DNA of 22,730 nucleotides from a virus. Taxonomy: Duplodnaviria > Heunggongvirae > Uroviricota > Caudoviricetes. A program made the translations under genes and the position numbers. The notes below the pieces were generated by a model. That model saw nothing but the letters and a program-made list of their open reading frames with translations. It ran no database searches and was not told the origin of the DNA. Shown here piece by piece: positions 215 through 21,653 of this stretch. Position 1 is the stretch's first letter. Every line of letters starts with the position of its first letter. Where the stretch lies: IMG/VR virus record IMGVR_UViG_2565956720_000001; one strand, given 5' to 3'.

Positions 215-243
215 TTGCAGACCGGGGGTGAATAGCGTACTAT
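215..243 (+). promoter_or_regulatory. Candidate sigma70 promoter for the small membrane-peptide operon (TTGCAG -17 bp- TACTAT)
   Basis: -35-like TTGCAG at 215-220 and -10-like TACTAT at 238-243 with 17-bp spacing, about 40 bp upstream of the ATG at 284. Pattern match only. Confidence 0.3.
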
Positions 244-257
244 TACCTTAAAGGTAA
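243..257. promoter_or_regulatory. Palindrome TTACC-N5-GGTAA (copy 1), candidate operator overlapping the -10/+1 of the small operon
   Basis: TTACC (243-247), ttaaa, GGTAA (253-257); the same arms recur at 18387-18401 and 21549-21563. Confidence 0.4.
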
Positions 258-283
258 ACCATGTGTTTACATGAGGGGGAAAC

Positions 284-472
284 ATGGAAATCAACATCAT
301 TACATTGCTGAAGGCCATTATTGGCGGAGCGGGCTTAGGCTTTGCCCTACCAGGCGGATTATCTTTCCTGCTTCCTGCTTTTACTGTTACAGCTGGGATA
401 GCCTATGCATTTGCTGTAGCTGGTGCTGTTGCACTCCCTGCTATCTATGCCGCAAAGAAGTTAGCCAACTAA
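284..472 (+). CDS. 62-aa hydrophobic Gly/Ala-rich small membrane peptide (glycine-zipper-like); possible toxin or bacteriocin-like peptide
   Basis: ATG at 284 preceded by GAGGGGG (274-279). Product MEINIITLLKAIIGGAGLGFALPGGLSFLLPAFTVTAGIAYAFAVAGAVALPAIYAAKKLAN has GxxxG/GxxxA motifs and a basic C-terminus. TAA at 470-472 lies 1 nt before the next ATG. Confidence 0.55.
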   Translation: MEINIITLLKAIIGGAGLGFALPGGLSFLLPAFTVTAGIAYAFAVAGAVALPAIYAAKKLAN

Positions 473-473
473 A

Positions 474-806
474 ATGCCTGATTTATCTTGGCTTGCGCCC
501 AGAGATGCACAGCAATTGACAAGGTTTTATTTCATACTGTGCATTGCTTATCTTGCTGTTCATCTGATATGGGATGCCGTTTGCAAAGATACGCCTCCTT
601 TTTCTTTGGATAAGTTGCAATACAAGATGAATGAGGTTTATTCATCATCTACTTTTGCAACCAGCGCATTCTTCATTGTTATTCTGTTCGATATGAAGAA
701 TCCACTGAGAACTTCAGATGCTTTCATATTCCCATTAATTATTGCTGCTCTAACTGGCTTTATGATCTCATTATCAGCAATAGTGCCAAAGAAAGTAAAT
801 AACTGA
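474..806 (+). CDS. 110-aa predicted 3-TM membrane protein, translationally coupled partner of the 62-aa peptide (candidate immunity/antitoxin)
   Basis: ATG at 474, one nt after the upstream stop; three hydrophobic segments (FYFILCIAYLAVHLIW, AFFIVILF, FIFPLIIAALTGFMISLSAIV); lower G+C than neighbours by eye; followed by a terminator. Confidence 0.55.
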   Translation: MPDLSWLAPRDAQQLTRFYFILCIAYLAVHLIWDAVCKDTPPFSLDKLQYKMNEVYSSSTFATSAFFIVILFDMKNPLRTSDAFIFPLIIAALTGFMISLSAIVPKKVNN

Positions 807-810
807 ATAA

Positions 811-832
811 GCCCGCTCTGCGGGCTTTTTTG
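811..832 (+). terminator. Rho-independent terminator of the small two-gene operon
   Basis: GCCCGC-TCT-GCGGGC hairpin (811-825) followed by TTTTTTG, 5 nt after the stop at 804-806. Confidence 0.7.
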
Positions 833-870
833 TGCCTGCAGATTCCCGCCCGGGTGGCGGTGGCATTCGT

Positions 871-895
871 TAAAAACAAGGCCGCGAAAGCGGCC
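871..895 (-). terminator. Rho-independent terminator downstream of the antirepressor gene (minus strand)
   Basis: GGCCGC-GAAA-GCGGCC hairpin (880-895); on the minus strand it is followed by TTGTTTTTA (reverse complement of 871-879). Confidence 0.55.
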
Positions 896-896
896 T

Positions 897-908
897 GTGA
901 CATGTCAC
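897..908. repeat. 12-bp perfect palindrome GTGACATGTCAC, copy 1
   Basis: Exact 12-mer, self-complementary; identical copies at 19377-19388 and 21642-21653. Here it abuts the antirepressor terminator hairpin. Confidence 0.8.
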
Positions 909-946
909 GATAGTTCCTTTTTGCACATCCCTGTGCCTCCGTTCTG

Positions 947-1891
947 TCAGAAGAACCCTGCCTTGTCATTGATGTACTCTGCGTGAGTCTGGATATCACG
1001 CAGGCATTTGCTCACACCAACGATGTAGCAGAACATGGTGGTCAGCTCCGCCGCCGCGCCCGATACGTCATGCCCGTCGTCCTGCAACTGATTCAGCAGA
1101 TTCATCAGCAATGAGTTCTCCGTCAGGCCGAGAACACCAGACGGCGAGTGAATCAGGCTGCGGTAGCCGGGCTTCAGCGGATAACCATAACATTTTGTCT
1201 GTGTTTTAATTGCCTCACGAAGCGCATCTAACATCTTGACTGCCACTTCATCATTCTCTGATGCAGATCCAGCAGGGAGATACTCCCCTTCAAGCGGAAC
1301 CCGAGCAACAAGAGACAACGCTTCGGCGAATTGATCTTCATCAATTTCTTTGTACGAACAGCCAAAATGAGATTTCAGTGACGACCACATGGTGATCATC
1401 GCCTTAGCCTGTTTTTCTTTTGGCAGAGACTGACCGCGACTCATGACGAGTTGTTTAATGGCTTCCTGCTGTTCAGTGGTTATTTTACCCGGCAACGCCT
1501 TTTTAGCTTTGCGTGGGTTAACCACATGGCCTTTAGTCCAGTACTCGTAGAGCACATCGTCACACTCTTCCTGATACTGGATTACCTTGTCGCGGATTTC
1601 AGGACGGACTTTGTTAGGGCTGATGGTTTGCAACCAGCCAGCAAGTTTGCGAAGTGCCAAACAAATAATCTCACGGCGCTGTTCATCCCCAGGAAGCTGC
1701 ATTGTGATTTTCACAATGCAGGTTTTAAACCGCTGCTTCATTTTCGTAAACTGTGAAGCCCAATCCATACCCATTCCCTCAACGATAGGCTTCATTGGTG
1801 TGTACGGTTCGCCGTTGTGATTGACAACATAAAGTTCTACGCCGTGGAATGGCACGTTGATAGTAGATACCGCTGTTGCTATACTCGTCAT
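947..1891 (-). CDS. ant: Phage antirepressor (Ant-like; P22 antirepressor-type N-terminal domain plus C-terminal domain)
   Basis: 314-aa ORF with ATG at 1891 and TGA at 947-949. N-terminal INVPFHGVELYVVNHNGEPYTPMKPIVEGMGMDW matches the antirepressor N-domain signature as remembered. Sits downstream of an Arc-like gene, as arc-ant does in P22 immI. Confidence 0.85.
   Translation of the reverse strand: MTSIATAVSTINVPFHGVELYVVNHNGEPYTPMKPIVEGMGMDWASQFTKMKQRFKTCIVKITMQLPGDEQRREIICLALRKLAGWLQTISPNKVRPEIRDKVIQYQEECDDVLYEYWTKGHVVNPRKAKKALPGKITTEQQEAIKQLVMSRGQSLPKEKQAKAMITMWSSLKSHFGCSYKEIDEDQFAEALSLVARVPLEGEYLPAGSASENDEVAVKMLDALREAIKTQTKCYGYPLKPGYRSLIHSPSGVLGLTENSLLMNLLNQLQDDGHDVSGAAAELTTMFCYIVGVSKCLRDIQTHAEYINDKAGFF
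1857..1885 (+). promoter_or_regulatory. Candidate promoter for a Sar-like antisense RNA (TTGATA -17 bp- TATACT), inside the 5' end of ant on the opposite strand
   Basis: TTGATA at 1857-1862 and TATACT at 1880-1885 with 17-bp spacer; predicted start about 1892, immediately antisense to the ant ribosome-binding region. Confidence 0.35.
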
Positions 1892-1967
1892 GTCGTTAAT
1901 TCCTATACGTAGTTTTACGATACTGAAGCCCTGACGGTCTGGCCACCGTTGGGCTTCGCTGTTTTAT
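1892..1967 (+). ncRNA. sar: Candidate Sar-like antisense RNA complementary to the ant translation-initiation region (about 75 nt)
   Basis: Promoter at 1857-1885; hairpin GAAGCCC…GGGCTTC (1925-1957, inner stem ACGGT/ACCGT) followed by GCTGTTTTAT on the plus strand only. Same layout as the P22 sar RNA between arc and ant. Inferred, not experimentally supported. Confidence 0.35.
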
Positions 1968-2131
1968 GCCACGCTATTCTTCTCACCAGTGAGTCCATAC
2001 ACTTTCCTCAGCTGATAGATAATCTCTGTATTGAACTTTCGGCATTCTTTTTCGCCATTTCTTTCAATAGCTAACTTCACATCGTCCGGAAAACGAACTC
2101 GTCGTTGACACATCTCTTTTGCTTTTTGCAT
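1964..2131 (-). CDS. arc: Arc-like ribbon-helix-helix repressor (55 aa)
   Basis: Start re-placed at ATG 2131 (AAGGAG 7 nt upstream); the track's longer start has no ribosome-binding site. Product MQKAKEMCQRRVRFPDDVKLAIERNGEKECRKFNTEIIYQLRKVYGLTGEKNSVA follows the Arc pattern (R-x-P-x-x-V…NG…N-x-E-I-Y-Q). Directly upstream of ant on the same strand. Confidence 0.65.
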   Translation of the reverse strand: MQKAKEMCQRRVRFPDDVKLAIERNGEKECRKFNTEIIYQLRKVYGLTGEKNSVA

Positions 2132-2146
2132 TTCATATCTCCTTAG

Positions 2147-2214
2147 CCCCACCGTGGGGCAAAACAATTGTCACACCGTGCGTCATTGATGTCAAGCACA
2201 CGGTGAGGCATACT
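2147..2214. promoter_or_regulatory. Divergent, overlapping promoter/operator region between the arc-like and mnt-like genes
   Basis: Minus strand: TTGACA (reverse complement of 2191-2196), 17 bp, GACAAT, reading toward arc. Plus strand: TTGATG (2186-2191), 17 bp, CATACT (2209-2214), reading toward mnt. Palindrome GCCCCAC-C-GTGGGGC at 2147-2161; half-site CACCGTG at 2151-2157 and 2173-2179, inverted as CACGGTG at 2199-2205. Confidence 0.4.
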
Positions 2215-2251
2215 TCAATCATTGCAAGTAACTCAATATTTGGTGAAGAAC

Positions 2252-2683
2252 ATGAGCAGAGAAGATCCACAACTAAGGATCAGACTTCCCGTTGAAGTAA
2301 AAGAAAAAATAGAAATTTCTGCAAAAGCCAATAAGCGATCAATGAACGCTGAAATAGTACAACGTCTTGACACCAGCTTTCTGAAAGATATTCATGAAGA
2401 TGACGTAATTTCTGCTTATGAAGCAAAAATTATTGCAAACAATGCACGGCATGAAATATCAAATATTATTTTCAAAAGAACCTTTAATGAAATTAATAAG
2501 AAAATAACACTTGGACATACAAGTTTTTATATAAACCTTAATGACCTTGAACTGGAATCACTTGCAGATAATGATTACCAGATCATCTTTGAAAAAACAT
2601 TTAATAAGCTCAATGAACTAGGTTACATCATCTGTGAAAACTCATGGGATGCAGATGGTTTTGGAATTGAAATACCTGAATAG
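2252..2683 (+). CDS. mnt: Mnt-like ribbon-helix-helix repressor with an about 95-aa C-terminal extension of unknown function (143 aa)
   Basis: ATG at 2252 with GGTGA 5-6 nt upstream (the track start at 2222 is TTG). N-terminus MSREDPQLRIRLPVEVKEKIEISAKANKRSMNAEIVQRL aligns with remembered P22 Mnt (MARDDPHFNFRMPMEVREKLKFRAEANGRSMNSELLQIV). Roughly one-third G+C by eye. Confidence 0.8.
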   Translation: MSREDPQLRIRLPVEVKEKIEISAKANKRSMNAEIVQRLDTSFLKDIHEDDVISAYEAKIIANNARHEISNIIFKRTFNEINKKITLGHTSFYINLNDLELESLADNDYQIIFEKTFNKLNELGYIICENSWDADGFGIEIPE

Positions 2684-2694
2684 GAAGAACAAAA

Positions 2695-2720
2695 GGCGTG
2701 TACATATTACACGTCTTTAA
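2695..2720 (+). terminator. Candidate intrinsic terminator after the mnt-like gene
   Basis: GGCGTGTA-CATAT-TACACGTC hairpin followed by TTTAA; moderate T-tract. Confidence 0.35.
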
Positions 2721-2773
2721 TACAATTGAAAAACGCCACATTACTGATGTATGTTACAACAAGGAGCGATATT

Positions 2774-3337
2774 TTGAAAACCATATCTATATTAAAGGTT
2801 GCATTAGGCGTCGCTATTATTTTGACTCTCTCAATATTGTTTTATTTTTACCACAAAAAAACAGCTATTGCTCTTGATGGTCACGCGGCAAACTCATTTT
2901 TCTCAGAGTACATAGTGCCGCTATCAGGAAGCGGTATAACAAATAAATATACTGACTATGACATCAAATATGGAATTGATGATGGGGAGACTATTGTATT
3001 ACATGTAATCATTAAAAACCTAATGACAGTAAATAAAAATACAGACTTCAACGATAAAAATACAATACATCACAACAACAGCAAAACATTAATTTCTTAT
3101 AGTAGCAACATCTATACGGATAAATACCTAAAATACATCTCAGAAGATACAATAAAAGCAACCAGCGAAAAGTTAAAAAACATATATTGTGCATCCGGCA
3201 GTTTTCACAAATTATCGCCGCAAGAGCGTTTATTCTACGAAGCAAGAAAACAACGTAAGTCAATAATATTACATTATTATGCTGATTCAGGGGAGTCACT
3301 CATATTTAATATTGGGGTTTCCCCTGAATCATGCTAA
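2774..3337 (+). CDS. AT-rich signal-anchored/secreted protein of unknown function in the sieA-equivalent position (candidate superinfection-exclusion protein)
   Basis: ORF to TAA at 3335-3337. Best-supported start is TTG 2774, with AAGGAG (2761-2766) 7 nt upstream; alternatives are ATG 2747 (no ribosome-binding site) and the track's TTG 2726. N-terminus KTISILKVALGVAIILTLSILFYFYHKK is a signal anchor. Asn/Lys/Tyr-rich, low G+C. Confidence 0.6.
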   Translation: MKTISILKVALGVAIILTLSILFYFYHKKTAIALDGHAANSFFSEYIVPLSGSGITNKYTDYDIKYGIDDGETIVLHVIIKNLMTVNKNTDFNDKNTIHHNNSKTLISYSSNIYTDKYLKYISEDTIKATSEKLKNIYCASGSFHKLSPQERLFYEARKQRKSIILHYYADSGESLIFNIGVSPESC

Positions 3338-3348
3338 AGGCGTTTAAC

Positions 3349-6300
3349 TCACCGCATCACCGGATCCACCTGGTTTATTAGTGGCGCAATCCAGAACAGG
3401 TTATTGCCTGGTATCAGGGTTCGGACATTATGCACAATACGATCACCGGCATCACCATTCAACACTCCTGCGGTCACATCAATGATGCTATCCGCAAGAC
3501 CAAATGACGGTCCGAATAGAGATCCTACGAATCCACGACTGGCATACCTAGACTGTGTGCCAGTGCCAAATAAAGCCCCCAGCCCAACAGCACCACCAGT
3601 AGCCTTTTCAGCCATGTTGTTATATTCCATCAATGGCCCAAGAATACCGGATCTATCTATACCCTCAAGCACCAGCTTCTCTGGTGACCAGTCAACATTT
3701 TTCCCTTTCGATGCTTCTTTAAGCGCATAGACCAGTGAGCCAAGAGCAATCTGAAATGCAGTGCCATAATAAAATTGCGCAGTTCCTTCCTGTAGCCCAC
3801 CAAGTAGCGCACGGTTGTATGAAGCCGTTGTGAATGATTTAAACTGAAATATCGTTCGCCCCATTGGAGTACTCGCCCATAAAGGTGTGTCACCAATACC
3901 GGGGGTGATGATAGTGTTATTAACGTCTTTCAGAACCGCTGACTGGAATACTCCGGCAACGTACTGATCGTCCCATTTATCAAAGTTACCAATGTGCCAT
4001 CCATCAATTACCTCACCATGTTTCTCGAACTCACTGCGAATACGCGCAGCCATATTGTCGTTGATACCGAGTTTTGCCATGCGACGTGCAGAAAACGCAC
4101 CAGACAAAATACCGTCTGACGTGAGCATTCCGTTCATGGATTTGTTTATGTCATTAAATCGATCCATGAGTGTCAGCTTGCCGAAGGCATCAGTAATTCG
4201 CTCCATTCCTGCTTCGACTGCTGTTGTCCTGGAAGAACTGTCAACAAGATCACCAATTGCACGAGAACGTGAATGTAGTACAGTTTCCAATCCAATCCCC
4301 ATCTTCAACATCTCTTCTTTGCTGGCCTTAAATGCCGGTGATTGGGATATCTGAGAAGCATAGCCTTTCATGGTGTTACGGAAACCATTAACCATAACCC
4401 CTCTGGCCAGATCTGGAATAGCTGATACTGTCATTCCACCGAGTTTGGTCGTGAAGTTCACATCCCGCAGAAAAGCGCCAGCACGAACAAAAAACGAAGA
4501 CGGGTCATCAGGCATACCATATGTACCAACAAGACGATCGCGTAATGCTGTTATGTCTCTGAGATCATTTGCTCTTGATTTTGAAAGTCTGGACTGTTCT
4601 TTCCGTAATTCCTTTTCGTACTTTCGCATTAATGAATCGAGTTTACCCTGAGGAACAACTTCACCATTGCTCTCATAACGTGCTTTCAGATTTGCCACAC
4701 TTTCGTCATATTTCGCCTTTATTTTTTCAGGCACTTCCCGTAACAGACTGTCATATTCGTCTTCAATTAATTGCAGACGCTCAGCCATAGTTCGTTTGCC
4801 AAATGTTCTCGTCAACTCAATTTCTGCTGCCGCTTCACGGATATGACGTTGCAGCACGTAATTCACATCACTTTCGAGATAATCCCTGATAAGACTATCA
4901 GGCACATTTAATGTTCTTTCTTTCGTACTACCTGCGGCTTTTACAGAAAATACGCTGACAAAATCCTGTGGAACCTTAGCACCAGTAATTTTATTAATTA
5001 CGATATCCGCTGCAATTTCAGCATCCTCAGGATCCAGTGTTTTATTGCCTCTCGACCACCAGTCAACCAAAATACGTCGAAATTTATCGCGTTCACTGAT
5101 TATTTTTCCAACTTTATATATACGTGGGAAATAGCTTGCCTGACCTAATGCTTTCAGTTCTTCATCTGGCGGCAATAAACCAAGCTTTTGCATTTCAACT
5201 TTCACCCGATTTAATACAGTTCGCATCGCCTGCGCCGTTTCCTGAACAACAGGATTAGCATGAACATCACCGCTTCGCATCGCATTCCCAACCTGCTGAC
5301 GAAATGAATCAAAACTCATGTCACCACCATCAGCTTTATACTTTGCGTATGCCTGTTTATTTCCGACAACAACTGCAGCTTCTTCACGCTGCCATCCACG
5401 TGTACGGGTTTCTACAGCTATCGGTGTTTCAATCCCCCTTTCATTTCCTTTAAGGGTGAAATTATTTTCGGCTAACTCCAGCGTTGTTTTTCGCACTGTC
5501 TTTGACGGAGACTCCATTAACCTTGTCAAAGGAGTAAGATAGCTCCCTGCTTTCCATGCAGCCTTTCCAACCACCCCACCAGAAACAGGGGTTAAATCAT
5601 CCAGAGTCGCTGTATCAATTTTCATAGCACCAACACTACCACCATCGGAAAGCGAAGCGGCAGCCCTGTCAGTCGCTGATGTAATGCTCATATTATCAAG
5701 AGCATCAGCAACCTCACGTGTGGCTGCAGCCCGGACGGATGGCGAAAGCGCAACACCAGCACTGGCAAACACGCCGCTCATCATCGCACCCGCTGCAACG
5801 TGAGCGGCACTTTCACCCCATGAGCGTGTTATTTGCTGATTATTCAGTACAACCTCGCTTAATGCAGTACCGGCAGCACCAATCGCAATCTGTGAGCCAA
5901 TACGCGCCAGTGCCCCTCCTTGAGCACCGGGGATAAACATTGACGCAACAGTAACCGGATCCATTCCCGCAGCAATACTGGCAAGGGTTCCAACTACGCC
6001 AGCATCAGACAATAAACGTCTGTCTTCATTTTCATCATCTATCTGCTGCTTAATCCACGCCGTTTCCTCTGGCGATCGGGAATCTGCAAATTTCGCCCCC
6101 CAGTATTCATAACCGTGCAACTCATTTTTATCAGCATATGGGTTATAACCTTCGACCGGTTCAAACTGTCTGGCTGGGCGGAAAAAACCAGCCAGAATAT
6201 TGTTCTGTCGCATTGCAGCCCCCCATACGGAAGGCTCAGGTGGCAATGGCTCAGGATTAGCCCCTTCCGGAAGGGCAACATCAAACCCAGTTTGTTCCGG

Positions 6301-6363
6301 CAAAACATTACCTGACGGGATCAGTCCGTTATTAAGATCTTCAGCTTGTGCATAAACTGGCAT
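3349..6363 (-). CDS. Large internal virion / DNA-ejection protein (T7 gp16-position analogue, 1004 aa)
   Basis: Long ORF; its ATG (6363) overlaps the TAA of the upstream gene (TAATG). Last gene of the tubular-protein/core-protein series; Gly/Ala-rich N-terminal region. Confidence 0.75.
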   Translation of the reverse strand: MPVYAQAEDLNNGLIPSGNVLPEQTGFDVALPEGANPEPLPPEPSVWGAAMRQNNILAGFFRPARQFEPVEGYNPYADKNELHGYEYWGAKFADSRSPEETAWIKQQIDDENEDRRLLSDAGVVGTLASIAAGMDPVTVASMFIPGAQGGALARIGSQIAIGAAGTALSEVVLNNQQITRSWGESAAHVAAGAMMSGVFASAGVALSPSVRAAATREVADALDNMSITSATDRAAASLSDGGSVGAMKIDTATLDDLTPVSGGVVGKAAWKAGSYLTPLTRLMESPSKTVRKTTLELAENNFTLKGNERGIETPIAVETRTRGWQREEAAVVVGNKQAYAKYKADGGDMSFDSFRQQVGNAMRSGDVHANPVVQETAQAMRTVLNRVKVEMQKLGLLPPDEELKALGQASYFPRIYKVGKIISERDKFRRILVDWWSRGNKTLDPEDAEIAADIVINKITGAKVPQDFVSVFSVKAAGSTKERTLNVPDSLIRDYLESDVNYVLQRHIREAAAEIELTRTFGKRTMAERLQLIEDEYDSLLREVPEKIKAKYDESVANLKARYESNGEVVPQGKLDSLMRKYEKELRKEQSRLSKSRANDLRDITALRDRLVGTYGMPDDPSSFFVRAGAFLRDVNFTTKLGGMTVSAIPDLARGVMVNGFRNTMKGYASQISQSPAFKASKEEMLKMGIGLETVLHSRSRAIGDLVDSSSRTTAVEAGMERITDAFGKLTLMDRFNDINKSMNGMLTSDGILSGAFSARRMAKLGINDNMAARIRSEFEKHGEVIDGWHIGNFDKWDDQYVAGVFQSAVLKDVNNTIITPGIGDTPLWASTPMGRTIFQFKSFTTASYNRALLGGLQEGTAQFYYGTAFQIALGSLVYALKEASKGKNVDWSPEKLVLEGIDRSGILGPLMEYNNMAEKATGGAVGLGALFGTGTQSRYASRGFVGSLFGPSFGLADSIIDVTAGVLNGDAGDRIVHNVRTLIPGNNLFWIAPLINQVDPVMR

Positions 6364-13518: not shown

Positions 13519-13528
13519 ATACACTCCT

Positions 13529-13552
13529 GCAATAAAGGGGCCGAAGCCCCTT
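13529..13552 (-). terminator. Intra-operon intrinsic terminator within the late gene array (analogous in position to T7 Tphi)
   Basis: On the minus strand: AAGGGGC-TTCG-GCCCCTT hairpin followed by TTTATT, then the AGGAG/ATG of the next gene. Confidence 0.45.
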
Positions 13553-13568
13553 GTCTGATTCGCGAGGC

Positions 13569-13904
13569 TTACACGCCCAGTTCTTTACGCTTATCTGCGA
13601 TCTTCTCGCGGAGCGTTTCGGCTTTGGCGTTATGGTGTGGCTTCTCGTTAAAGAGCAATTCGTACTCTTCACGGAGCTTATCCAGTTCACCATCATCTGA
13701 CACATCGTTGATGATTTTGGTGCTGGTTGCTGCCATTGACACCTTTCCTGCAACTTTTGCTTTTGCCTGTCTGGCTGCATCGTTAACAGGTTCCAGTGCG
13801 CTACCAGGCTCACCTTCGTATTCGATTTCTGCCCCCTCCGGCCACAGAGTGTTATGGATATGAGAGAGGCGCAGAACGCGGTATCTTGGTTTCTCACCTG
13901 ACAT
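13569..13904 (-). CDS. Hypothetical phage protein (111 aa)
   Basis: Start placed at ATG 13904, with AAGGTGA 5 nt upstream (the track start is GTG 13913). Charged, helical-looking C-terminus; followed by the terminator above. Confidence 0.65.
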   Translation of the reverse strand: MSGEKPRYRVLRLSHIHNTLWPEGAEIEYEGEPGSALEPVNDAARQAKAKVAGKVSMAATSTKIINDVSDDGELDKLREEYELLFNEKPHHNAKAETLREKIADKRKELGV

Positions 13905-13914
13905 CAATATCACC

Positions 13915-14352
13915 TTAACCAGTTACTTTTGAGCGGATCGGGTACGGTGTATTGGCATCAACATCCAGACTGATACCCGCAGTGAATTTGCCGGCCGTTA
14001 GTGGGCCAGTTGCGACGGAGTAGTTAACACGCAGATATCGCTGAACACCGGCAGGCACCTTTGCAGAAACAACTCGTTTACCTGCTGTCAGGGTAGCCTT
14101 TGCCAGTGCGCCACTATCATAAATAGTGGACCATGAGCTGTTATTCTCACTCGTCTGCAACTGGATGTTTACAGTTGCCTCACCACTTGCCGTGGCGGCT
14201 TCGTTAACCAGCACCCAAAACTCAAGCGGGTAACCCACACCGATATCGCGACAGTTTCCGTCAATTGGACCGAGATCGATTACGTCAGTAGAAGCCGCGG
14301 TATCAGTTACCGCCTGTGCTTCGGAGAACATCAACAGTTTGTCGGTGATCAT
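13915..14352 (-). CDS. Hypothetical capsid-associated protein (145 aa), possibly a decoration or minor capsid protein
   Basis: ATG at 14352 with GGAG upstream; immediately downstream of the major capsid gene; Thr/Ala/Gly/Val-rich. The decoration role is a guess from position. Confidence 0.65.
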   Translation of the reverse strand: MITDKLLMFSEAQAVTDTAASTDVIDLGPIDGNCRDIGVGYPLEFWVLVNEAATASGEATVNIQLQTSENNSSWSTIYDSGALAKATLTAGKRVVSAKVPAGVQRYLRVNYSVATGPLTAGKFTAGISLDVDANTPYPIRSKVTG

Positions 14353-14403
14353 CTTCTTTCTCCATTAGTGGGCCTGTTGCGGCCCACAGGTTAATAACAG
14401 GCG

Positions 14404-15396
14404 TTACACCACGCGGGCTTCTGTTTCCAGAAGTGCGTCAGTTTCGCGAATCGGCACACCACGAAGTGCTGTCCACCATTCGCCTTCTGTCTCTTTCACG
14501 CTGATCGCCAGAGAACTCTTCTCCAGAGATTGCAGGTCAAGCACTTCGTTAATGGTTCTGTTCATGTAGAAAACAGGACGTCCCATCCCACGATTTGGGA
14601 TTCGATGAAGGGCACGAATCATCAGTTTTGCGATATTCGCGGCAGTAGAAGGAGCGTCAAGATTACTGACATCAATGTTTGCGATACGAACTACATAGCG
14701 CCAGTCACGTAATGTCAGCCCGTTGTCCCACTTATAATGGGTACGATAACCTTCGTACTTGCCGCCATTAGCATCTTCCAGTGTCACCTGGCCTTTATCT
14801 TCCATCTGAATGCCAGCCTTCTGTCCTTTCGGGAAGATGCCATGCACGGTGTTTTCGCCCCACACCACTAACCAGATTGAAGTGTTATCTGTACCCGTGC
14901 CACCAGCATCAATGATGTTCTGAGCATTACCCGCAGACAGGCTGGAATATCGGGAGGACAGTCCCATAAACTGCTGAGGGTTAACGCTGGAATCACCGTA
15001 AAACAGTGTCTGCGCCATCGCCTGATTCATCGCTTCAATAAATGCGCGGTCTTCAGACAGGCGGAATTCGGCGGTATTGCCGTTCAGATCAGCCAGTGAC
15101 TTATCGACTTCAGCATAGGTTTCCAGCATGCCAACGTAATCGGTTACCTGCACTGTGGTTGATTTGCTTGGCTGTACGCCATAGTTCAGCAAACGCCAGG
15201 TAGCTGAAGGTAAACCAGAACGAATGGTGGTTCGGTGTCCGGTAGGAAGGTTCCCTTCGACAAAAGGCATATCCTGAAGGATCGGGTTAGTTTGACCGAG
15301 AAGCTCGATAATCTTATCGACTTTCCCGTTTGGATCGACGCGCTTACCCCAGTCAGCCAGCGTTAGCGCAGTTAAGCCTTTAACAGCCATTGTCAT
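14404..15396 (-). CDS. Major capsid protein (330 aa)
   Basis: Follows the scaffold gene in the portal-scaffold-capsid order; ATG at 15396 (or 15390) with a GAGAGGAA ribosome-binding site. Confidence 0.85.
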   Translation of the reverse strand: MTMAVKGLTALTLADWGKRVDPNGKVDKIIELLGQTNPILQDMPFVEGNLPTGHRTTIRSGLPSATWRLLNYGVQPSKSTTVQVTDYVGMLETYAEVDKSLADLNGNTAEFRLSEDRAFIEAMNQAMAQTLFYGDSSVNPQQFMGLSSRYSSLSAGNAQNIIDAGGTGTDNTSIWLVVWGENTVHGIFPKGQKAGIQMEDKGQVTLEDANGGKYEGYRTHYKWDNGLTLRDWRYVVRIANIDVSNLDAPSTAANIAKLMIRALHRIPNRGMGRPVFYMNRTINEVLDLQSLEKSSLAISVKETEGEWWTALRGVPIRETDALLETEARVV

Positions 15397-15404
15397 TTCC
15401 TCTC

Positions 15405-16100
15405 TTATTTGCCATAGAGCACTTCGGCCGCACTACGCTGGCCTTCATTACCACCGGTGACCATGCCATCTTCAGACATCGCCTTTCCGATTTTCACGAA
15501 CGTTTTGACCAGATCAGGGTGATTACCCAGCCCGGTGGTGTTCAGATATTCTTTGAGTTCAGGTGTCCCGAACTGGTCAAGCGCACGCTGTGCGGCGCTA
15601 AGGTTAGAAATCAACTTGTCGCCACCGATTTCTTTGTCGGCTTTTACATCCGCAGCCCACTGCTCGGTTGTTTTCTGCCAGGCTTCTGCCTGGCGCTGCT
15701 GAACACCTGCCAGAATCTTCGGATAAGCATCAACCAGCTTTTGCGCTTGCTCGTTGGTCAGGTTTAGTTCTCGCGCCACCGGCTCGAATTCCTTCAACGC
15801 TTCTGTATCCAGCTCTACGCCTTCGGCAGCCTGAAACTCGTACTTCTCAGGCGCACCCTCTGGTTTATCGCCGTCCTTTTTTTCATCCTGCTTATCGTTT
15901 TCAGGCTTTTTGTCATCAGCAGGTTTATCGCCATCAGCAACAGGTTGTGGCTTATCACCTTCCGGTTGTGATGGTTCACCAACTGGAGCAGGGTTATCAC
16001 CTGCAGGCGCTGACGGTTCTGACGCAGCCGGAGCTGCTCCACCATCGACTGGTTGCTCATTGCAAAGACGGCGATACAGCAAACGCTCAAATAAATTCAT
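15405..16100 (-). CDS. Scaffolding protein (231 aa; acidic, Pro-rich N-terminal region with GDKP repeats)
   Basis: Start re-placed at ATG 16100 (GGAG 5 nt upstream; the track start 16106 is GTG). Asp/Glu/Lys/Pro-rich, low-complexity, helical C-terminus; lies between portal and capsid genes. Confidence 0.8.
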   Translation of the reverse strand: MNLFERLLYRRLCNEQPVDGGAAPAASEPSAPAGDNPAPVGEPSQPEGDKPQPVADGDKPADDKKPENDKQDEKKDGDKPEGAPEKYEFQAAEGVELDTEALKEFEPVARELNLTNEQAQKLVDAYPKILAGVQQRQAEAWQKTTEQWAADVKADKEIGGDKLISNLSAAQRALDQFGTPELKEYLNTTGLGNHPDLVKTFVKIGKAMSEDGMVTGGNEGQRSAAEVLYGK

Positions 16101-16102
16101 GA

Positions 16103-16399
16103 TCACTCCTGTTCACTGGCCTCTTTGGCCATCTTCAAATACTGTTCAGGGCAATGCGCCATAACGCGCTGAAACAGTTCCAGCGCCAGATTGCGTTGCC
16201 CCTCATTAAATGCCATTGCCATAGCGTCCATCGGTGAGATAGCGGAAAACACACGGCCTTTCTCCAGCACCGACCAGACAACGCGACGCCCCTGTTCACT
16301 GCTCATGACAAAGCGAATGTCATCAATTTCACGCTGTGCCATGTCACGTTGCTTACGGGCGTTTTCTTCTTTCAGTTGATCATCTTCGTAATCTGTCAT
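16103..16399 (-). CDS. Hypothetical head-assembly protein (98 aa)
   Basis: ATG at 16399; its TGA (16105-16103) lies 2 nt before the scaffold ATG; acidic, helical composition. Confidence 0.65.
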   Translation of the reverse strand: MTDYEDDQLKEENARKQRDMAQREIDDIRFVMSSEQGRRVVWSVLEKGRVFSAISPMDAMAMAFNEGQRNLALELFQRVMAHCPEQYLKMAKEASEQE

Positions 16400-16404
16400 T
16401 GTGA

Positions 16405-18075
16405 TTACCCACCCTGACCACTAACTGCATTCGCCATAGCTGACAAAACACTCGGATCCGAAGTTTTAGCTTCGCTTAGCGTCTTGGCGCCCTGTGCCGC
16501 CGCCATTCCCATCGCCATCATTTGTTGCTGCTGTTGCTGCTGTGCCCGTTGCTGGCGAGCCTGCTCAACCTGTTCCTGCGGAACAATGACGGTTGGAGAC
16601 ACTCCGGACATATCAGCGAATGCATCGATCGCCTGATCAACATTGAGTTTGTCGAGAGCTTCTGGTTTCGCTTGCGCAAGTTGACCAATGAAGTTGACCG
16701 TAGACGCCAGACTGGACAGGCCGATAGACTTCTGCGCCTGAGCCATGACGGAAATGTATTCGACCTTCAGGGGCATACCTTCCATCGCGTCAGGCGGTGG
16801 CGGCAGCATGTTTTTACGCACCATCATCGAGAAAGCGCGGTCAATGAGAGGATTAAGACATTCGTCGTTCAGACGCTCCAGAACCGGCCCCAACATCAGA
16901 AGTTTTTCTTCTTTCATTTCGATCACCGCTTCAACAGGCATCGAGCGGGTATTGATGTTCTGCAACATCATGAACAGATCGACAAAGTAGGCGCTGTTAA
17001 TGATTTGACGAGTGTCCTGAATGTCTGCCACCAAATCTGCTGTACTGGGGTTAACCAGATAAGCAGGCCTGAAGCCATCCTGACCAGTAATCTGATCGAT
17101 ATACGTGATGTCGCCAGGAAGAAGGGAGGCGCGCTGATTCTTGAGGGAAGTCGGAGCAACCATCGGCGGATTGGTGGCTTTATCAATCAACTGCGACTTG
17201 CGCTTCTGGAGAAGCTGCAATGCCTTAACAGGTCCAAGCGCCAGCATACCCGGGCATGATGATCCATAAACATCTTCGCCGTTAACTTCCCAGCGCGGAG
17301 CCATAATTGGAAACTCATCGAATCCGGACTCACGCAACAACTTGTCGTTATCGCCACCAACCTCGTAATAAACCGATTTGAATGGCTTGTTCTTGCTATC
17401 CAGCTTCGATGTATCGCGGTCAATGTTCGGGTAAACCGAATGCATCACTTCAATCCACTTCTCGTAGGTGCCGCTTTCCCACATGCTTTTTACGGATTCG
17501 CTGACGTTATTTAGCCCGAACTCCTGAACAAGCTGACGAACAGTCATAGAGAACTTGCGAAAACAGGTGTCCACACTGCCACGAGGTGAGTTAGCTAGGT
17601 AGTAACTGCCTATCGGGAATGGCATTGTGCGAATGATGTCCTCGTCATCCTCCAGCACTGCCATTGCACCAGTGCTGTATGTGCCGAGGCTTCCGTATAA
17701 CTGCGGCAGAGACTGATAGAGATTCGACTTATTGAACATATCGTTCATGCGGTTCTGCACCGCCTCAAGCCACAACTTAACAGGGCCATAATCCATCATT
17801 TCAGGATCTGGCGTAGCCAGGCGAAACCACGGACGCGCGGGGCTTGTGATGCCTGACATCATGCCGCTGGCGAGAGTGCGCGCCGCCATAGTCCCGGTCG
17901 AATCAATAATGCGTGTATTGCGTCGATCGTTACGGTTGACCTCAGAAGTCAGAAAGCGGGAACCACGTGGGTTGATGTAATCACTCAACTCGCGCCAGTG
18001 CGGCTCGAACGACTGACGCTCGCTTTCAAGTTGTGCGAACTGTTTGTTCAATCGCTCTTTAGTTGTTTCCGCCAT
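16405..18075 (-). CDS. Portal (head-to-tail connector) protein, T7 gp8-like (556 aa)
   Basis: ATG at 18075 with GGAG upstream. C-terminal tail …QQRAQQQQQQQMMAMGMAAAQGA… resembles the remembered T7 gp8 C-terminus (…QKMAQQSMQMGMDNGAAALAQGMAAQ…); size and position fit. Confidence 0.85.
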   Translation of the reverse strand: MAETTKERLNKQFAQLESERQSFEPHWRELSDYINPRGSRFLTSEVNRNDRRNTRIIDSTGTMAARTLASGMMSGITSPARPWFRLATPDPEMMDYGPVKLWLEAVQNRMNDMFNKSNLYQSLPQLYGSLGTYSTGAMAVLEDDEDIIRTMPFPIGSYYLANSPRGSVDTCFRKFSMTVRQLVQEFGLNNVSESVKSMWESGTYEKWIEVMHSVYPNIDRDTSKLDSKNKPFKSVYYEVGGDNDKLLRESGFDEFPIMAPRWEVNGEDVYGSSCPGMLALGPVKALQLLQKRKSQLIDKATNPPMVAPTSLKNQRASLLPGDITYIDQITGQDGFRPAYLVNPSTADLVADIQDTRQIINSAYFVDLFMMLQNINTRSMPVEAVIEMKEEKLLMLGPVLERLNDECLNPLIDRAFSMMVRKNMLPPPPDAMEGMPLKVEYISVMAQAQKSIGLSSLASTVNFIGQLAQAKPEALDKLNVDQAIDAFADMSGVSPTVIVPQEQVEQARQQRAQQQQQQQMMAMGMAAAQGAKTLSEAKTSDPSVLSAMANAVSGQGG

Positions 18076-18089
18076 TTCAATGACTCCGG

Positions 18090-18296
18090 TTACTGACCAA
18101 GCAGCGTTTTACCGCTGGTCTTAGCGGTTGATGTGTCGCCCTGAGAACCGGTAAGCAGCGTAGAACTACGACCAGCAGCAGCGCGACGGCGACGAGTTTC
18201 TTCGTCGCGGGCATCAACAACGGCGGCATCCTGCTCCTGTGGTGCTGCCTGAACTTCTGGTGTTGCAGGCACTGATGGTGAGCTACCCATGCACAT
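18090..18296 (-). CDS. Small hypothetical protein (68 aa, low-complexity, likely disordered) upstream of the portal gene
   Basis: ATG at 18296 preceded by GGAGTCATTGA, the same 11-mer that precedes the portal ATG. Preferred over the overlapping 79-aa frame (18077..18316), which is Leu/His/Arg-rich and has no ribosome-binding site. Confidence 0.5.
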   Translation of the reverse strand: MCMGSSPSVPATPEVQAAPQEQDAAVVDARDEETRRRRAAAGRSSTLLTGSQGDTSTAKTSGKTLLGQ

Positions 18297-18386
18297 ATCA
18301 ATGACTCCGTACGCAATTAAATTATTACCAATTTAACCACATATGATTTATTTATCGTAGATAGTTGACATTTAACGCACAAATTA

Positions 18387-18401
18387 TTACCTTTCAGGTA
18401 A
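18387..18401. promoter_or_regulatory. Palindrome TTACC-N5-GGTAA (copy 2), about 20 bp after a TTGACA hexamer
   Basis: TTACC (18387-18391), tttca, GGTAA (18397-18401); TTGACA at 18365-18370. The direct repeat AAATTATTACC also occurs at 18319-18329. Confidence 0.4.
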
Positions 18402-18725
18402 CCAAAGAGTTCATTCCGGTTACTAACCTGACTGGCTTGTCGTTAAATTGAACAGGTGGAGTGAGCTTTTATTTTGAGCAGTACGGCGTATGGCACATGC
18501 GCCGATAGCGGTCTGGATACGTTTAAGGGGCACCCTCCCTTGCTCGGGCAAACGAACCAGGTAGCCGGAATGTGCAAGTCACCGTTGGTAGGATAGCGGA
18601 TTCAGGGACTCACCATCCTGGCGATTCGGTGTGACGCCTCGGAAGAGACGAGGGTACAACGATGAGAGCATTTATGGAGCCGCGACAAAGTGTGGCGCCT
18701 TAACAGGCTAAGTGCTCTCAGCGTT

Positions 18726-18802
18726 GTGGCATTAGCTCAGCTGGACAGAGCAACCGCCTTCTAAGCGGTTGGTCGCAGGTTCGAATCCTGCATGCCACGC
18801 CA
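18726..18802 (+). tRNA. tRNA-Arg (anticodon UCU, reads AGA), with encoded CCA
   Basis: Manually folded cloverleaf: acceptor GTGGCAT/ATGCCAC, D-stem GCTC/GAGC, anticodon stem ACCGC/GCGGT with loop CTTCTAA (anticodon TCT), variable loop TGGTC, T-arm GCAGG-TTCGAAT-CCTGC, discriminator G plus CCA. Confidence 0.9.
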
Positions 18803-18846
18803 GAATCACGCCTAAGGACCGTGATGCCAGAAGTTCCAGGGGCTTG

Positions 18847-18888
18847 GCGGTGATGGTTTCCCTTGAAGGACTATCACCGCCCTTTTTA
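18847..18888 (+). terminator. Intrinsic terminator downstream of the tRNA
   Basis: 9-bp stem GGCGGTGAT / ATCACCGCC followed by CTTTTTA. Confidence 0.5.
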
Positions 18889-18965
18889 CAGCAGGACGCC
18901 ATTGCGATGACTTCATGCTGTAAACCAGTACAGCCACGGAAGGCATAACTCATTGCTTCCAGTTC

Positions 18966-18990
18966 GCCCGGTTCGCCGGGCATTTTTTTA
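18966..18990 (+). terminator. Second intrinsic terminator (or attenuator) abutting the ribosome-binding site of the 123-aa ORF
   Basis: GCCCGG-TTCG-CCGGGC hairpin followed by ATTTTTTTA; the AGGTGAG ribosome-binding site of the next ORF starts at the end of the T-tract. Confidence 0.55.
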
Positions 18991-19000
18991 AGGTGAGATT

Positions 19001-19372
19001 ATGAACGACCAGCAAATCGAAAAAGAAATCGTTGAGAAAGGCAAAACTGCTCCTCGCGTTACGCCAGACCATATCGAAAGCATTATTGCTCAGGAGGCAT
19101 ATTTCACAGCAGAGGATGGTGCCTTTGGCAAAGCCATAAAAGCGAAACATACTGGCGGAGAGGTAAACTACCAGCCGCACGAATCACTTTCTCTGCTGAC
19201 GTTCTGCGTCCTGGTGCTGCGCAACGGCTTCACCGTCACCGGAGAGAGCGCCTGTGCAAGCCCGGAAAACTTTGATGCAGAAATTGGTCGGAAGATTGCC
19301 CGGCAGAATGCTGTAAACAAAATCTGGATGCTTGAAGGTTACTTGCTGAAGCAGAAGTTAAGCGAGCAATAA
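19001..19372 (+). CDS. Hypothetical protein (123 aa) carried with the tRNA on the strand opposite the late genes
   Basis: ATG at 19001 with AGGTGA upstream; coherent composition; followed by the GTGACATGTCAC palindrome and a terminator. No family assigned. Confidence 0.7.
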   Translation: MNDQQIEKEIVEKGKTAPRVTPDHIESIIAQEAYFTAEDGAFGKAIKAKHTGGEVNYQPHESLSLLTFCVLVLRNGFTVTGESACASPENFDAEIGRKIARQNAVNKIWMLEGYLLKQKLSEQ

Positions 19373-19376
19373 CACC

Positions 19377-19388
19377 GTGACATGTCAC
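19377..19388. repeat. 12-bp perfect palindrome GTGACATGTCAC, copy 2
   Basis: Exact copy, 4 nt after the stop of the 123-aa ORF and 4 nt before the terminator hairpin. Confidence 0.8.
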
Positions 19389-19392
19389 AAAC

Positions 19393-19420
19393 AGCCAGCC
19401 TATGAGCTGGCTTTGTTTTA
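19393..19420 (+). terminator. Intrinsic terminator between the convergent 123-aa ORF and the large terminase gene (possibly bidirectional)
   Basis: AGCCAGC-CTATGA-GCTGGCT hairpin followed by TTGTTTTA on the plus strand; an A/T-rich flank is also present on the other side. Confidence 0.55.
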
Positions 19421-19462
19421 TCCTCATCAGAGGATATCAACGACATTATCCCCACCAGCGGA

Positions 19463-20938
19463 TTAAGCATAAGGGTCATAATCCGTTATGGCCCTTCCCT
19501 GCTGGCTTTGCTGTCCTGGTATATTTATGCGTTTCGAGACCGGGAACGCAAACGTCAGCAGTAGCGCATCGCCTTTACCAGGAGAACGCCCAAGTCGCTC
19601 TTTGATATCTTCCTTCGGTTCGATAACGATTTTACCGTCCACTCGAACTTTGTACTCTGCTGCCGACAGGTCGTCCGCTGTTTCCTGGTCATCAAGCATG
19701 CCGCCCAGCCTCAGCCATGTCTTGCATGAATTGAACATCTCCCCACGCTTGTTGAGCATCTGCGGGTCAGTAGACGCGCCACCGAACGGAACAAGTTGCC
19801 ATGTACGACCCCATCCGTCACCGATTGACTTCAGACCGGTTCCGTAACCGAAGTCGATGAACACCGCGTCAGCCTGATACTGGTCTTCAAAGTCAGCGAT
19901 ACGCTTCGCCATAATCAGATCGTCGGTAGTCTTGTTGCCAGTCCACAGCACCTTACTGTGTAGCCCCTGCCGCAGGTATATCACCGCGTCATCAACGCCT
20001 GAATATGCCGGGTCAACACCGATTATCACCGGAGCATGCGCCACCTGCGCAGCGGTTACCACCCGTTTCATTGCCTCATCAGTAAGACCGGTAGGGATAA
20101 ACTGCAATTCAGATGCATCAGGGAATATGCCGCGCACACGGATTTTAACGAAGTCGCTGTCTTCCCCGTAGTCATCAACCCATTTCTGCAACTGCTGTTT
20201 GTTAGTGCCTTCCACCGTTCGGCTGTCAATCTGCGCAGTTTTCCAGCGGTGTTTATATTTGCGGAAACATTCGCGAAAACGCCCGGTGTTACGTGTAGGG
20301 TTTCCGAACGCCACCCAGATAATCTCAGTGTCTTCGTCCGTAAGCGCACCCTCAGCAACTTCCCACACCAGATCCGCAATGTTCGACGCTTCATCGAATA
20401 CCACGATGATGCGTTTGCGCTCGTTGTGTAGTCCGGCGAATGCCTCAGTGTTGTGCTCAGACCAGGGTATTGCGTCAGCCCGCCACCGCTTGTCGTGCCC
20501 AGGGTCATTGCTGTACATCGCAGTAGCGGTACAGGTAAACCAGTCTTTCGTGATAGCAAGGTTCGACCACTTGATAATTTCCGGCCAGGTCTTCGTTCGT
20601 AGCTGGTTGTCGGTGTTGGCGGTCACCACGATCTTACAATCCTCGCAAGTGGACATGCCCCAGTTGATCAGCATTGAGATGAATGCGGATTTACCAATAC
20701 CGTGACCAGAAGCGCGTGCCAGCATAAGCGGCTGATAGCGCGTCTCTGGATTCTGCAGGTGATCACGTATCTCTCGGAACGCATCAGCCTGCCACTGACG
20801 TGGGCCGGTAGCATGTGCCAGTTCAGTCCCCTCTTCCCCCCACGGGAACGCATAGAGGGCATAGCCAAGCGGATCGTGAGTGAACCCTGCAATATCCTCG
20901 ATCAACTGCTCTTCAGGAGATAACGCTGTATCTGTCAC
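19463..20938 (-). CDS. Terminase large subunit (491 aa)
   Basis: Long ORF directly after the small-subunit gene, with GTG start overlapping its stop (GTGA). Size and neighbourhood are typical of terminase large subunits; no motif was verified by search. Confidence 0.85.
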   Translation of the reverse strand: MTDTALSPEEQLIEDIAGFTHDPLGYALYAFPWGEEGTELAHATGPRQWQADAFREIRDHLQNPETRYQPLMLARASGHGIGKSAFISMLINWGMSTCEDCKIVVTANTDNQLRTKTWPEIIKWSNLAITKDWFTCTATAMYSNDPGHDKRWRADAIPWSEHNTEAFAGLHNERKRIIVVFDEASNIADLVWEVAEGALTDEDTEIIWVAFGNPTRNTGRFRECFRKYKHRWKTAQIDSRTVEGTNKQQLQKWVDDYGEDSDFVKIRVRGIFPDASELQFIPTGLTDEAMKRVVTAAQVAHAPVIIGVDPAYSGVDDAVIYLRQGLHSKVLWTGNKTTDDLIMAKRIADFEDQYQADAVFIDFGYGTGLKSIGDGWGRTWQLVPFGGASTDPQMLNKRGEMFNSCKTWLRLGGMLDDQETADDLSAAEYKVRVDGKIVIEPKEDIKERLGRSPGKGDALLLTFAFPVSKRINIPGQQSQQGRAITDYDPYA

Positions 20939-21531
20939 TGATTACCATCCTGACGTTCTTTGAGTCGCTTCCTGGCTGCCGCTATGCGATCAGCAATTGT
21001 CACATTCACATTAACATCCAGGCGTTCTTTGAATGCGTTGACGTCGACGTGCTTACCAATCAGTTCGAGGTTCTTCACCTTGTCAGGCCATTTAATTTTT
21101 TTGAGGATTGTCTCTATCGAATCCTCGTTCATGTTCATGATGGTCGATGACAGATCAAAGCCACTAAGCGTAGTGCGCCAGATTTTCGGCCACTCGCGGA
21201 TTGGCTTAAGGCTCCCATCGTCGTTGAGGATATCAATCACGTCCATCTGGTCGATCTCCACCAGGCGCATGAGAACGTAATCGGCACTGACGCGCATTCG
21301 TTTGTTGCGCTCCTCCATCAACTCGGCAATCCGTTTTTGAATGCGTTCATCGCGCATCATGACACTGGCTTTAACTGCCGCTGTATTTGGGGAGAATCCT
21401 GCGTTAATCGCTGCCTGAGTCTGGTTTTCAGGCGTTTTGATGTATGACTGGCAATAAGCCTCCTGCATTGCGGTTAGTGGCTTAAATTGCGTTGATTTGC
21501 GTTTATAGGTTTTAGGTTCAGCAGGCATCAT
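20935..21531 (-). CDS. Terminase small subunit (about 198 aa)
   Basis: Start placed at ATG 21531 (tandem ATG ATG preceded by AGGGTGG). The track's longer ORF begins with TTG at 21609 and would include a terminator hairpin. Basic, helical N-terminus; immediately precedes and overlaps the large subunit gene. Confidence 0.75.
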   Translation of the reverse strand: MMPAEPKTYKRKSTQFKPLTAMQEAYCQSYIKTPENQTQAAINAGFSPNTAAVKASVMMRDERIQKRIAELMEERNKRMRVSADYVLMRLVEIDQMDVIDILNDDGSLKPIREWPKIWRTTLSGFDLSSTIMNMNEDSIETILKKIKWPDKVKNLELIGKHVDVNAFKERLDVNVNVTIADRIAAARKRLKERQDGNQ

Positions 21532-21548
21532 AACCACCCTGGTAATTG

Positions 21549-21563
21549 TTACCGTTGTGGTAA
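21549..21563. promoter_or_regulatory. Palindrome TTACC-N5-GGTAA (copy 3), with an extra GGTAA half-site at 21541-21545, just upstream of the small terminase start
   Basis: GGTAA (21541-21545), ttg, TTACC (21549-21553), gttgt, GGTAA (21559-21563); 18 bp from the terS ATG. Could be an operator or a terminase-recognition element. Confidence 0.4.
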
Positions 21564-21573
21564 TAGTACCATG

Positions 21574-21600
21574 CAAAATAAAGCCGCCATAGTTGGCGGC
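21574..21600 (-). terminator. Intrinsic terminator between the accessory operon and the terminase genes (minus strand)
   Basis: On the minus strand: GCCGCC-AACTAT-GGCGGC hairpin followed by TTTATTTTG. Confidence 0.45.
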
Positions 21601-21641: not shown

Positions 21642-21653
21642 GTGACATGTCAC
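21642..21653. repeat. 12-bp perfect palindrome GTGACATGTCAC, copy 3
   Basis: Exact copy overlapping the TGA stop of the 21650..21988 ORF, about 40 bp upstream of a terminator hairpin on the minus strand. Confidence 0.8.

Follow-up and report, generated by a model that had tools for sequence, protein, structure and literature searches.

Repressor operators in epsilon15-like phages and comparable networks

The palindrome TTACC-N5-GGTAA is part of an operator system already known and annotated for the epsilon15-like phages, and is analysed here in a 22,730-nt stretch of viral DNA, IMG/VR record IMGVR_UViG_2565956720_000001 (the window), in which it stands before three transcription units. In the RefSeq record of Salmonella phage epsilon15, features annotated as 'protein_bind: repressor, lysogeny' are found at 12-27, 2931-2947, 19895-19911, 32479-32494, 32554-32570, 32616-32632 and 35906-35922, and matching of the sequences identifies every one of them as a TTACC-N5-GGTAA palindrome. 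The major repressor is said to have been identified experimentally in the epsilon15 genome paper; the paper on vB_EcoP_ZX5 contains no operator definition. Structures of the repressor Rep of phage SPC32H have been solved (PDB 5D50/5D4Z). A later paper that reviews the SPC32H work (PMC9638917) describes this Rep as a tetramer on palindromic DNA, with paired DNA-binding domains contributed by different dimers, and its removal by a tetramer of the antirepressor, Ant. Epsilon15, phiV10, SPN1S and SPC32H, all in the genus Uetakevirus, resemble the window prophage in having the same 15-17-bp palindrome, belonging to the same phage group and encoding a homologous repressor.

Two other networks offer more distant parallels. 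As with lambda CI and Cro, palindromic operators lie over the promoter core, form clusters between the repressor gene and a cro-like gene, and occur in pairs suited to cooperativity. However, the lambda repressor is not found at late or packaging promoters, whereas here operators are located on terminase, tailspike, int and accessory promoters, and a 62-bp distance between operator centres is seen repeatedly in pairs (39 cases). In P1, a single immunity repressor, C1, acts directly to shut many scattered promoters (e.g. Obanab at the ban operon), in contrast to lambda, where P_L and P_R alone are targets, and the ban operon also holds a homologue of the structured RNA that lies 3' of the second palindrome in the window. 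The 17-bp operators of P1 are, however, asymmetric, C1 is unrelated to Rep, and the comparison is best taken as an analogy of network design only, not as membership.

Megablast identifies the window as an epsilon15-like podovirus prophage (Uetakevirus). Identity is 97% to Escherichia phage TL-2011b across 92% of the window, 97% to phiV10-type phages, and approximately 77% to epsilon15 across the structural genes. The structural and packaging genes are carried on the minus strand, and a near-identical complete prophage adjoins guaA in Escherichia coli FDAARGOS_1302. Unlike the window, epsilon15 is without the cargo cassette that follows the first palindrome, and the window prophage differs from the epsilon15-like phages in an extra P22-type immI module (Ant and sar RNA).

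The palindrome in the window and in related genomes

Exact copies of TTACC-N5-GGTAA are found at 243-257 (TTACCTTAAAGGTAA, copy 1), 18387-18401 (TTACCTTTCAGGTAA, copy 2) and 21549-21563 (TTACCGTTGTGGTAA, copy 3), as an earlier note on this DNA had reported. The chance expectation is 0.01 exact copies per window, and three copies were reached by none of 100 dinucleotide-preserving shuffles of the window. Allowing up to one mismatch adds a single site, at 21531-21545 (TAACCACCCTGGTAA), the right arm of which is the GGTAA at 21541-21545; the element previously listed as an extra half-site is present, but as part of a full one-mismatch palindrome. When spacings of 0-12 were scanned in the window and three reference genomes, N5 alone was enriched, the other spacings yielding one chance N11 match, and the reversed arm order, GGTAA-N5-TTACC, had zero occurrences in the same sequences. 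The half-sites are 10 bp apart, centre to centre. The description of fixed arms and a variable 5-nt spacer holds for the arms, which are invariant, and in part for the spacers, which vary among orthologues but are not wholly free: A or T occupies the middle position in 30/30 exact sites from TL-2011b, SPC32H and the E. coli prophage, and in 295 of the 305 sites from 120 IMG/VR loci. Flanking bases favour A and T, giving a 17-bp consensus of ATTACCnnWnnGGTAAT. All four window sites are intergenic, and intergenic DNA makes up about 6% of the window by our estimate from the map of open reading frames (ORFs). No site with one mismatch or fewer occurs between 258 and 18386, the immI region included. 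A weak site at 267-281, which has two mismatches and is not kept in TL-2011b, was treated as a chance match.

The motif is conserved in related prophages, where the earlier note had proposed a search for it. Complete relatives contain 14 (TL-2011b, phiV10 and the FDAARGOS_1302 prophage) or 15 (epsilon15 and Tyrion) sites with at most one mismatch, against an expectation of 0.5-0.8. In the FDAARGOS_1302 locus, 14/14 sites belong to the prophage, and the approximately 9-10 kb of flanking DNA is free of them. All of them are intergenic, as are essentially all sites in the other complete relatives. The FDAARGOS_1302 sites are located at the tailspike/ant-like genes, Bro-N, the small cassette, the gap between gp3 and the tRNA gene, terS (two sites), after the replication genes (a pair), upstream of the cro-like gene (one), between the cro-like gene and rep (two), just beyond rep (a pair) and at int (one). 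More generally, complete relatives have sites on both sides of rep, which encodes a helix-turn-helix (HTH) repressor, as well as upstream of int, the tailspike/ant-like genes, Bro-N, the post-replication genes, terS and gp3. Alignment places copies 2 and 3 at positions orthologous to annotated epsilon15 sites (Table 1). Copy 1 has orthologues in TL-2011b and the FDAARGOS_1302 prophage and no epsilon15 counterpart.

Operators also occur as pairs separated by exactly 62 bp centre to centre, or about six helical turns, with the 39 cases drawn from IMG/VR loci. Examples outside the window are found at 5172/5234 and 8227/8289 in locus L001, 38940/39002 and 42045/42107 in L006, and 32555/32617 and 35907/35969 in L003. 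In each pair, one operator covers the -10/+1 region and its partner is placed upstream of the -35, an arrangement that suggests looping by a tetrameric repressor.

Rep as the probable binding protein

The palindromes in the window are, with a probability of about 0.9, operators of the main lysogeny repressor, Rep, a homologue of epsilon15 gp38 and SPC32H Rep. They have the N5 form, they lie in an epsilon15-like genome, and two of them are orthologous to annotated sites; in the nearest complete relatives, many copies flank rep, and the Rep protein is homologous to that of SPC32H. TL-2011b Rep (gp10) matches SPC32H Rep (PDB 5D50) with E = 7e-42 and 42% identity, the two share a conserved NLVNRW segment in the N-terminal domain, and the TL-2011b protein consists of an N-terminal Cro/YdaS-like region and a C-terminal HTH_3 domain. 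Rep of the FDAARGOS_1302 prophage is 99% identical to that of TL-2011b. In the window prophage, the rep gene would be located in the immunity region, past the right-hand end of the window by approximately 5 kb. From sequence we infer binding of these sites by this prophage's own Rep, the transcription starts and repression upon binding. The earlier suggestion of an operator for a dimeric regulator is thus upheld as to an HTH protein, but the binder is predicted to be encoded outside the window and to be the master lysogeny repressor.

Several points weigh against this assignment. No Rep or Cro homologue was found among the proteins encoded in the window, and the cognate repressor is taken from relatives. 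A simple promoter scan calls none of the three operator promoters, all of which match the consensus weakly. Finally, a Cro-like protein may share the sites, which would make 'Rep only' too narrow. In its full form, this last proposal is that during lytic growth the same sites are also, or mainly, bound by a Cro-like protein encoded divergently from rep, creating a two-regulator switch; we rate it somewhat below an even chance. Repressor and Cro share their operators as a rule in lambdoid switches, and every relative has a 76-aa gene divergent from rep with two to three operators in between, although the Cro-like protein has no recognisable match to a DNA-binding family. Such a protein would complement Rep rather than exclude it, and Rep is retained below as the predicted repressor of all three units.

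Putative promoters under the operators

Promoter registers were compared in 456 de-duplicated oriented contexts of sites, taken from all loci analysed. TTGACA in exact form precedes TTACC by a gap of 16 nt in 19 contexts and by a gap of 22 nt in 14 (27 with up to one mismatch); the only other exact TTGACA hexamers are two at a gap of 34 nt. The gaps of 16 and 22 nt are therefore two fixed, discrete promoter registers. In register A (22 nt), the end of the -10 hexamer is the first T of the operator, and the operator spans approximately -7 to +8. This register includes TTGACA-17-AATCAT at P_L, TTGATT-17-TTTAAT at the promoter that follows the replication genes, TTGCAA-17-TATATT at Bro-N, and, in the window, copy 1 (TTGCAG-17-TACTAT) and copy 3, which on the minus strand has the extended -10 TGgTACTAT and no -35. 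Register B (16 nt) is that of copy 2, with the -10 TACCTT inside the operator.

Because the simple scan calls none of them, the promoter assignments in the window rest on conservation and register. The conserved register to promoter elements nonetheless agrees with the earlier placement of the palindrome on the promoters of three separate transcription units.

Table 1. Positions of predicted operators, promoters and associated features in the window.
Feature	Position	Strand	Basis or remark
Putative sigma-70 promoter, TTGCAG(215-220)-17 nt-TACTAT(238-243)	215-243	+	Read from sequence
Predicted Rep operator, copy 1, TTACCTTAAAGGTAA	243-257	+	Exact match; ~-7 to +8 of cassette promoter
Two small ORFs, 284-472 (62 aa) and 474-806 (110 aa)	284-806	+	Predicted cargo of copy 1
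Terminator closing small cassette	809-827	+	Terminator scan
Antirepressor with P22_AR_N domain	947-1891	-	Part of P22-type immI module
sar antisense RNA	1893-1960	+	Rfam match, 45.2 bits against a threshold of 43
Putative promoter, TTGACA(18365-18370)-17 nt-TACCTT(18388-18393)	18365-18393	+	-10 inside operator
Predicted Rep operator, copy 2, TTACCTTTCAGGTAA	18387-18401	+	Exact match; orthologue of epsilon15 2931-2947
Structured non-coding leader (324 nt)	18402-18725	+	Fold z = -3.4; core ~18478-18725
tRNA-Arg(UCU)	18726-18802	+	tRNA search
Terminator ending copy 2 unit	18846-18881	+	Terminator scan
Small terminase gene (Terminase_2 family)	20938-21531	-	Pfam E = 1e-29; first gene predicted under copy 3
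Predicted one-mismatch operator, O2, TTACCAGGGTGGTTA on minus strand	21531-21545	-	Centre 18 bp from that of O1
Predicted Rep operator, copy 3 (O1), TTACCACAACGGTAA on minus strand	21549-21563	-	Exact match; orthologue of epsilon15 12-27
Putative extended -10, TGgTACTAT	21563-21571	-	Read from sequence; no recognisable -35; final T of -10 is first T of O1
Intrinsic terminator	21583-21600	-	Ends upstream (early-right) operon immediately before terminase promoter; annotated in epsilon15 and phiV10 records

Copy 1 and the cargo cassette

The putative promoter at copy 1 matches 7/12 consensus positions, and the final T of its -10 is the first T of the operator. Among orthologues of copy 1, the arms are invariant and the spacer is TTAAA in the window, CCAAA in the FDAARGOS_1302 prophage and TCAAG in TL-2011b. 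Stretches orthologous to the promoter-operator region (window 215-283) are found at approximately 33333-33375 in locus L001 and at 13614-13682 in L006. Both cassette proteins belong to PHROG families of unknown function, and the annotation of the FDAARGOS_1302 prophage includes the two genes as well. The promoter-operator (TTGCAG...GAATAGCGTACTA-TTACC) heads cargo sequences of at least five unrelated kinds among IMG/VR contigs, and in TL-2011b a promoter-operator of the copy 1 type is followed by a cassette encoding a YafO-family toxin. Copy 1 thus appears to be the Rep-controlled head of a variable cargo slot.

The cassette had been described as a moron that a phage regulator might coordinate with the late genes. 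The sites point instead to co-repression in the lysogen by the master repressor. As the palindrome is predicted to be the operator of the master lysogeny repressor, the small cassette would therefore not be a lysogen-expressed moron. One regulator over the cassette, the second unit and the packaging genes is still the favoured reading, with its coordination limited to co-repression in the lysogen.

Copy 2, its orientation and a structured RNA

The TTGACA upstream of copy 2 is invariant and held at a fixed distance of 16 nt, not the 20 bp given previously, in seven phages in which the bases between vary; the TTGACA-N16-operator arrangement accounts for 19 de-duplicated oriented contexts. The -10, TACCTT, matches only three of six consensus positions. 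Copy 2 had been assigned to the block of small ORFs and the portal gene. It does appear to be a promoter operator, but the plus-strand promoter points away from that block, toward a structured RNA and a tRNA-Arg gene. A sigma-70 promoter directed toward the portal genes was sought at copy 2, and a weak candidate alone was obtained (TTGTGC-17-TACGAT). The epsilon15 record places the copy 2 orthologue with the portal side, in contrast to the leftward promoter proposed here.

On the portal side, a stretch of about 45 nt (~18300-18345; the minus strand reads CATATGTGGTTAAATTGGTAATAATTTAATTGCGTACGGAG) lies directly upstream of a gp3-like ORF (18090-18296). It is almost fully invariant among 26 unique sequences, whereas third codon positions vary in the neighbouring coding DNA. 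The stretch has no obvious sigma-70 promoter and may represent an activator-dependent late promoter or an element of the 5' untranslated region.

The leader between copy 2 and the tRNA gene folds more stably than its shuffled counterparts (Table 1). An alignment of nine leader sequences has 53 consensus pairs, six of them with compensatory base changes, and the many G-U pairs are compatible with the plus strand only. A search of the leader against Rfam gave no family matches, even at E <= 1. The position of the tRNA was recorded in every unique TTGACA-N16-operator context that extends 400 nt or more downstream (28 contexts), and in 21 of them it lies approximately 323 nt downstream. The RNA itself is more widely distributed: a 19-nt core (GGTAGCCGGAATGTGCAAG) is found in more than 120 IMG/VR contigs, with 142 core matches, most of which lack both a Rep operator and a tRNA in their vicinity. 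Homologues detected by blastn occur in P1, P7, SJ46, RCS47, phage cdtI, Stx2c-converting phages and mEp390. In P1, and also in P7, the homologue belongs to the ban operon, which is controlled by C1, and is flanked there by trnI and ban; in phage cdtI it is found just after cI, with a putative P_L promoter about 60 nt upstream of it. Part of the leader region is labelled as an RNase III site in the epsilon15 record. Comparison of the leader with the 22-30 kb stretch of HK022, in which the presence of putL was unconfirmed, gave no similarity, and a link to put RNA is not supported.

Copy 2 might tentatively be viewed as the switch for an unclassified, widely shared phage RNA of approximately 250-320 nt, maybe a new class of RNA element in early transcripts. 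Such an element could serve as a scaffold for processing, for example, or as an RNA-based antiterminator by which polymerase passes the terminators at 18846-18881 and 18966-18981, but we consider this proposal doubtful.

Copy 3 and the terminase gene

Copy 3 adjoins the small terminase gene, as reported; this gene is on the minus strand and begins with ATGATG at 21531-21526. The second, one-mismatch site, O2, overlaps the Shine-Dalgarno sequence and the first ATG of the gene. O2 is kept with one to two mismatches in TL-2011b, phiV10, epsilon15, SPC32H and Tyrion, and is lost in more distant relatives; it is not annotated in the epsilon15 record. The sequence TGnTACTA-TTACC is kept in all relatives, with at least 54 IMG/VR matches that include the TG.

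The earlier note had also raised the possibility that copy 3, with the site at 21531-21545, is a pac- or cosB-like element recognised by the small terminase. The palindrome does lie immediately 5' of terS in every relative, and the deposited epsilon15, SPC32H and phiV10 records open within approximately 100 bp of the copy 3 orthologue. These openings, however, lie just after the terminator and look like a convention rather than a mapped end. A packaging site would be expected to be unique or nearly so, to co-vary with the small terminase and to coincide with the start or ends of packaging, whereas about 13 further copies of the palindrome are present, with rep flanked on either side, and the arms of copy 3 are unchanged while the small terminase drops to 53% identity. 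In addition, copy 3 has the same register to its -10 as the P_L operator, and an HHpred note in the epsilon15 record relates the large terminase to Sf6 gp2. Packaging of the Sf6/P22 type is headful, with pac inside the terS gene. A packaging role for copy 3 is thus very improbable, and this site, like copies 1 and 2, is best interpreted as a Rep operator.

Neighbouring genes and regulators within the window

The antirepressor gene and sar RNA (947-1960) constitute a P22-type immI module of a kind not annotated in the epsilon15, phiV10 or SPC32H records, and the module looks like a second, independent antirepression circuit of the prophage. Near the other end of the window, a minus-strand gene at 21650-21997 encodes a 115-aa protein of PHROG 536 (phrog_536, 'transcriptional regulator'), similar to epsilon15 gp49 and located directly upstream of the terminator and the terS promoter. 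This protein could be a late regulator. The adjacent gene, at 22103-22399 on the minus strand, encodes a 98-aa protein with a Lar restriction-alleviation domain. Between the large terminase gene and the portal block, an ORF of the Phage_gp49_66 family (19001-19372) is wedged in on the opposite, plus strand, and a second terminator-like hairpin (18966-18981, plus strand) is found immediately 5' of its ribosome-binding site.

The presence of the immI-like module, and of the phrog_536 gene directly upstream of copy 3, could be taken to mean that the palindrome is the operator of a regulator encoded in the window, whether the 115-aa protein or, from the immI module, one of the Arc-like and Mnt-like type. 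However, epsilon15, SPC32H and phiV10 have the motif at orthologous sites with no annotated Arc/Mnt or P22-type Ant module, the sites concentrate around rep and the cro-like gene rather than immI, where the window has none, and an operator over -10/+1 suits repression, not late activation. An in-window binder, including the Arc-like, Mnt-like and antirepressor candidates named earlier, is accordingly very improbable. The palindromes were also considered as methylation or restriction targets, a reading rejected in view of their intergenic location and their phasing relative to promoters.

Proposed mechanism and significance

If Rep is the binding protein, the 10-bp spacing of the half-sites would suit the placement of two Rep DNA-binding domains in successive major grooves. 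At copy 1, Rep would cover approximately -7 to +8 and keep RNA polymerase off the cassette promoter. At copy 3, it would cover the same interval of the extended -10 terminase promoter, with the weaker O2 site over the ribosome-binding site, and at copy 2 it would block the -10 of the promoter for the structured RNA and tRNA-Arg. Because the operators overlap the promoter cores, bound Rep would be expected to exclude RNA polymerase and to hold the three units off in the lysogen, and inactivation of Rep by an antirepressor would release all three at once.

One repressor acting directly on each promoter would explain the silence of the packaging genes, the tRNA/RNA unit and the accessory cassette in the prophage. 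It follows that the small cassette should not be treated as lysogen-expressed, and that TTACC-N5-GGTAA may be used to mark Rep-controlled promoters in epsilon15-like prophages. Beyond the known operator system, the new points are modest: two fixed promoter registers, the leftward orientation of the copy 2 promoter, the tandem site over the terS ribosome-binding site, and a conserved, probably Rep-controlled promoter at the head of a variable cargo slot. Among all these findings, only the structured RNA downstream of copy 2 may be of interest more widely.

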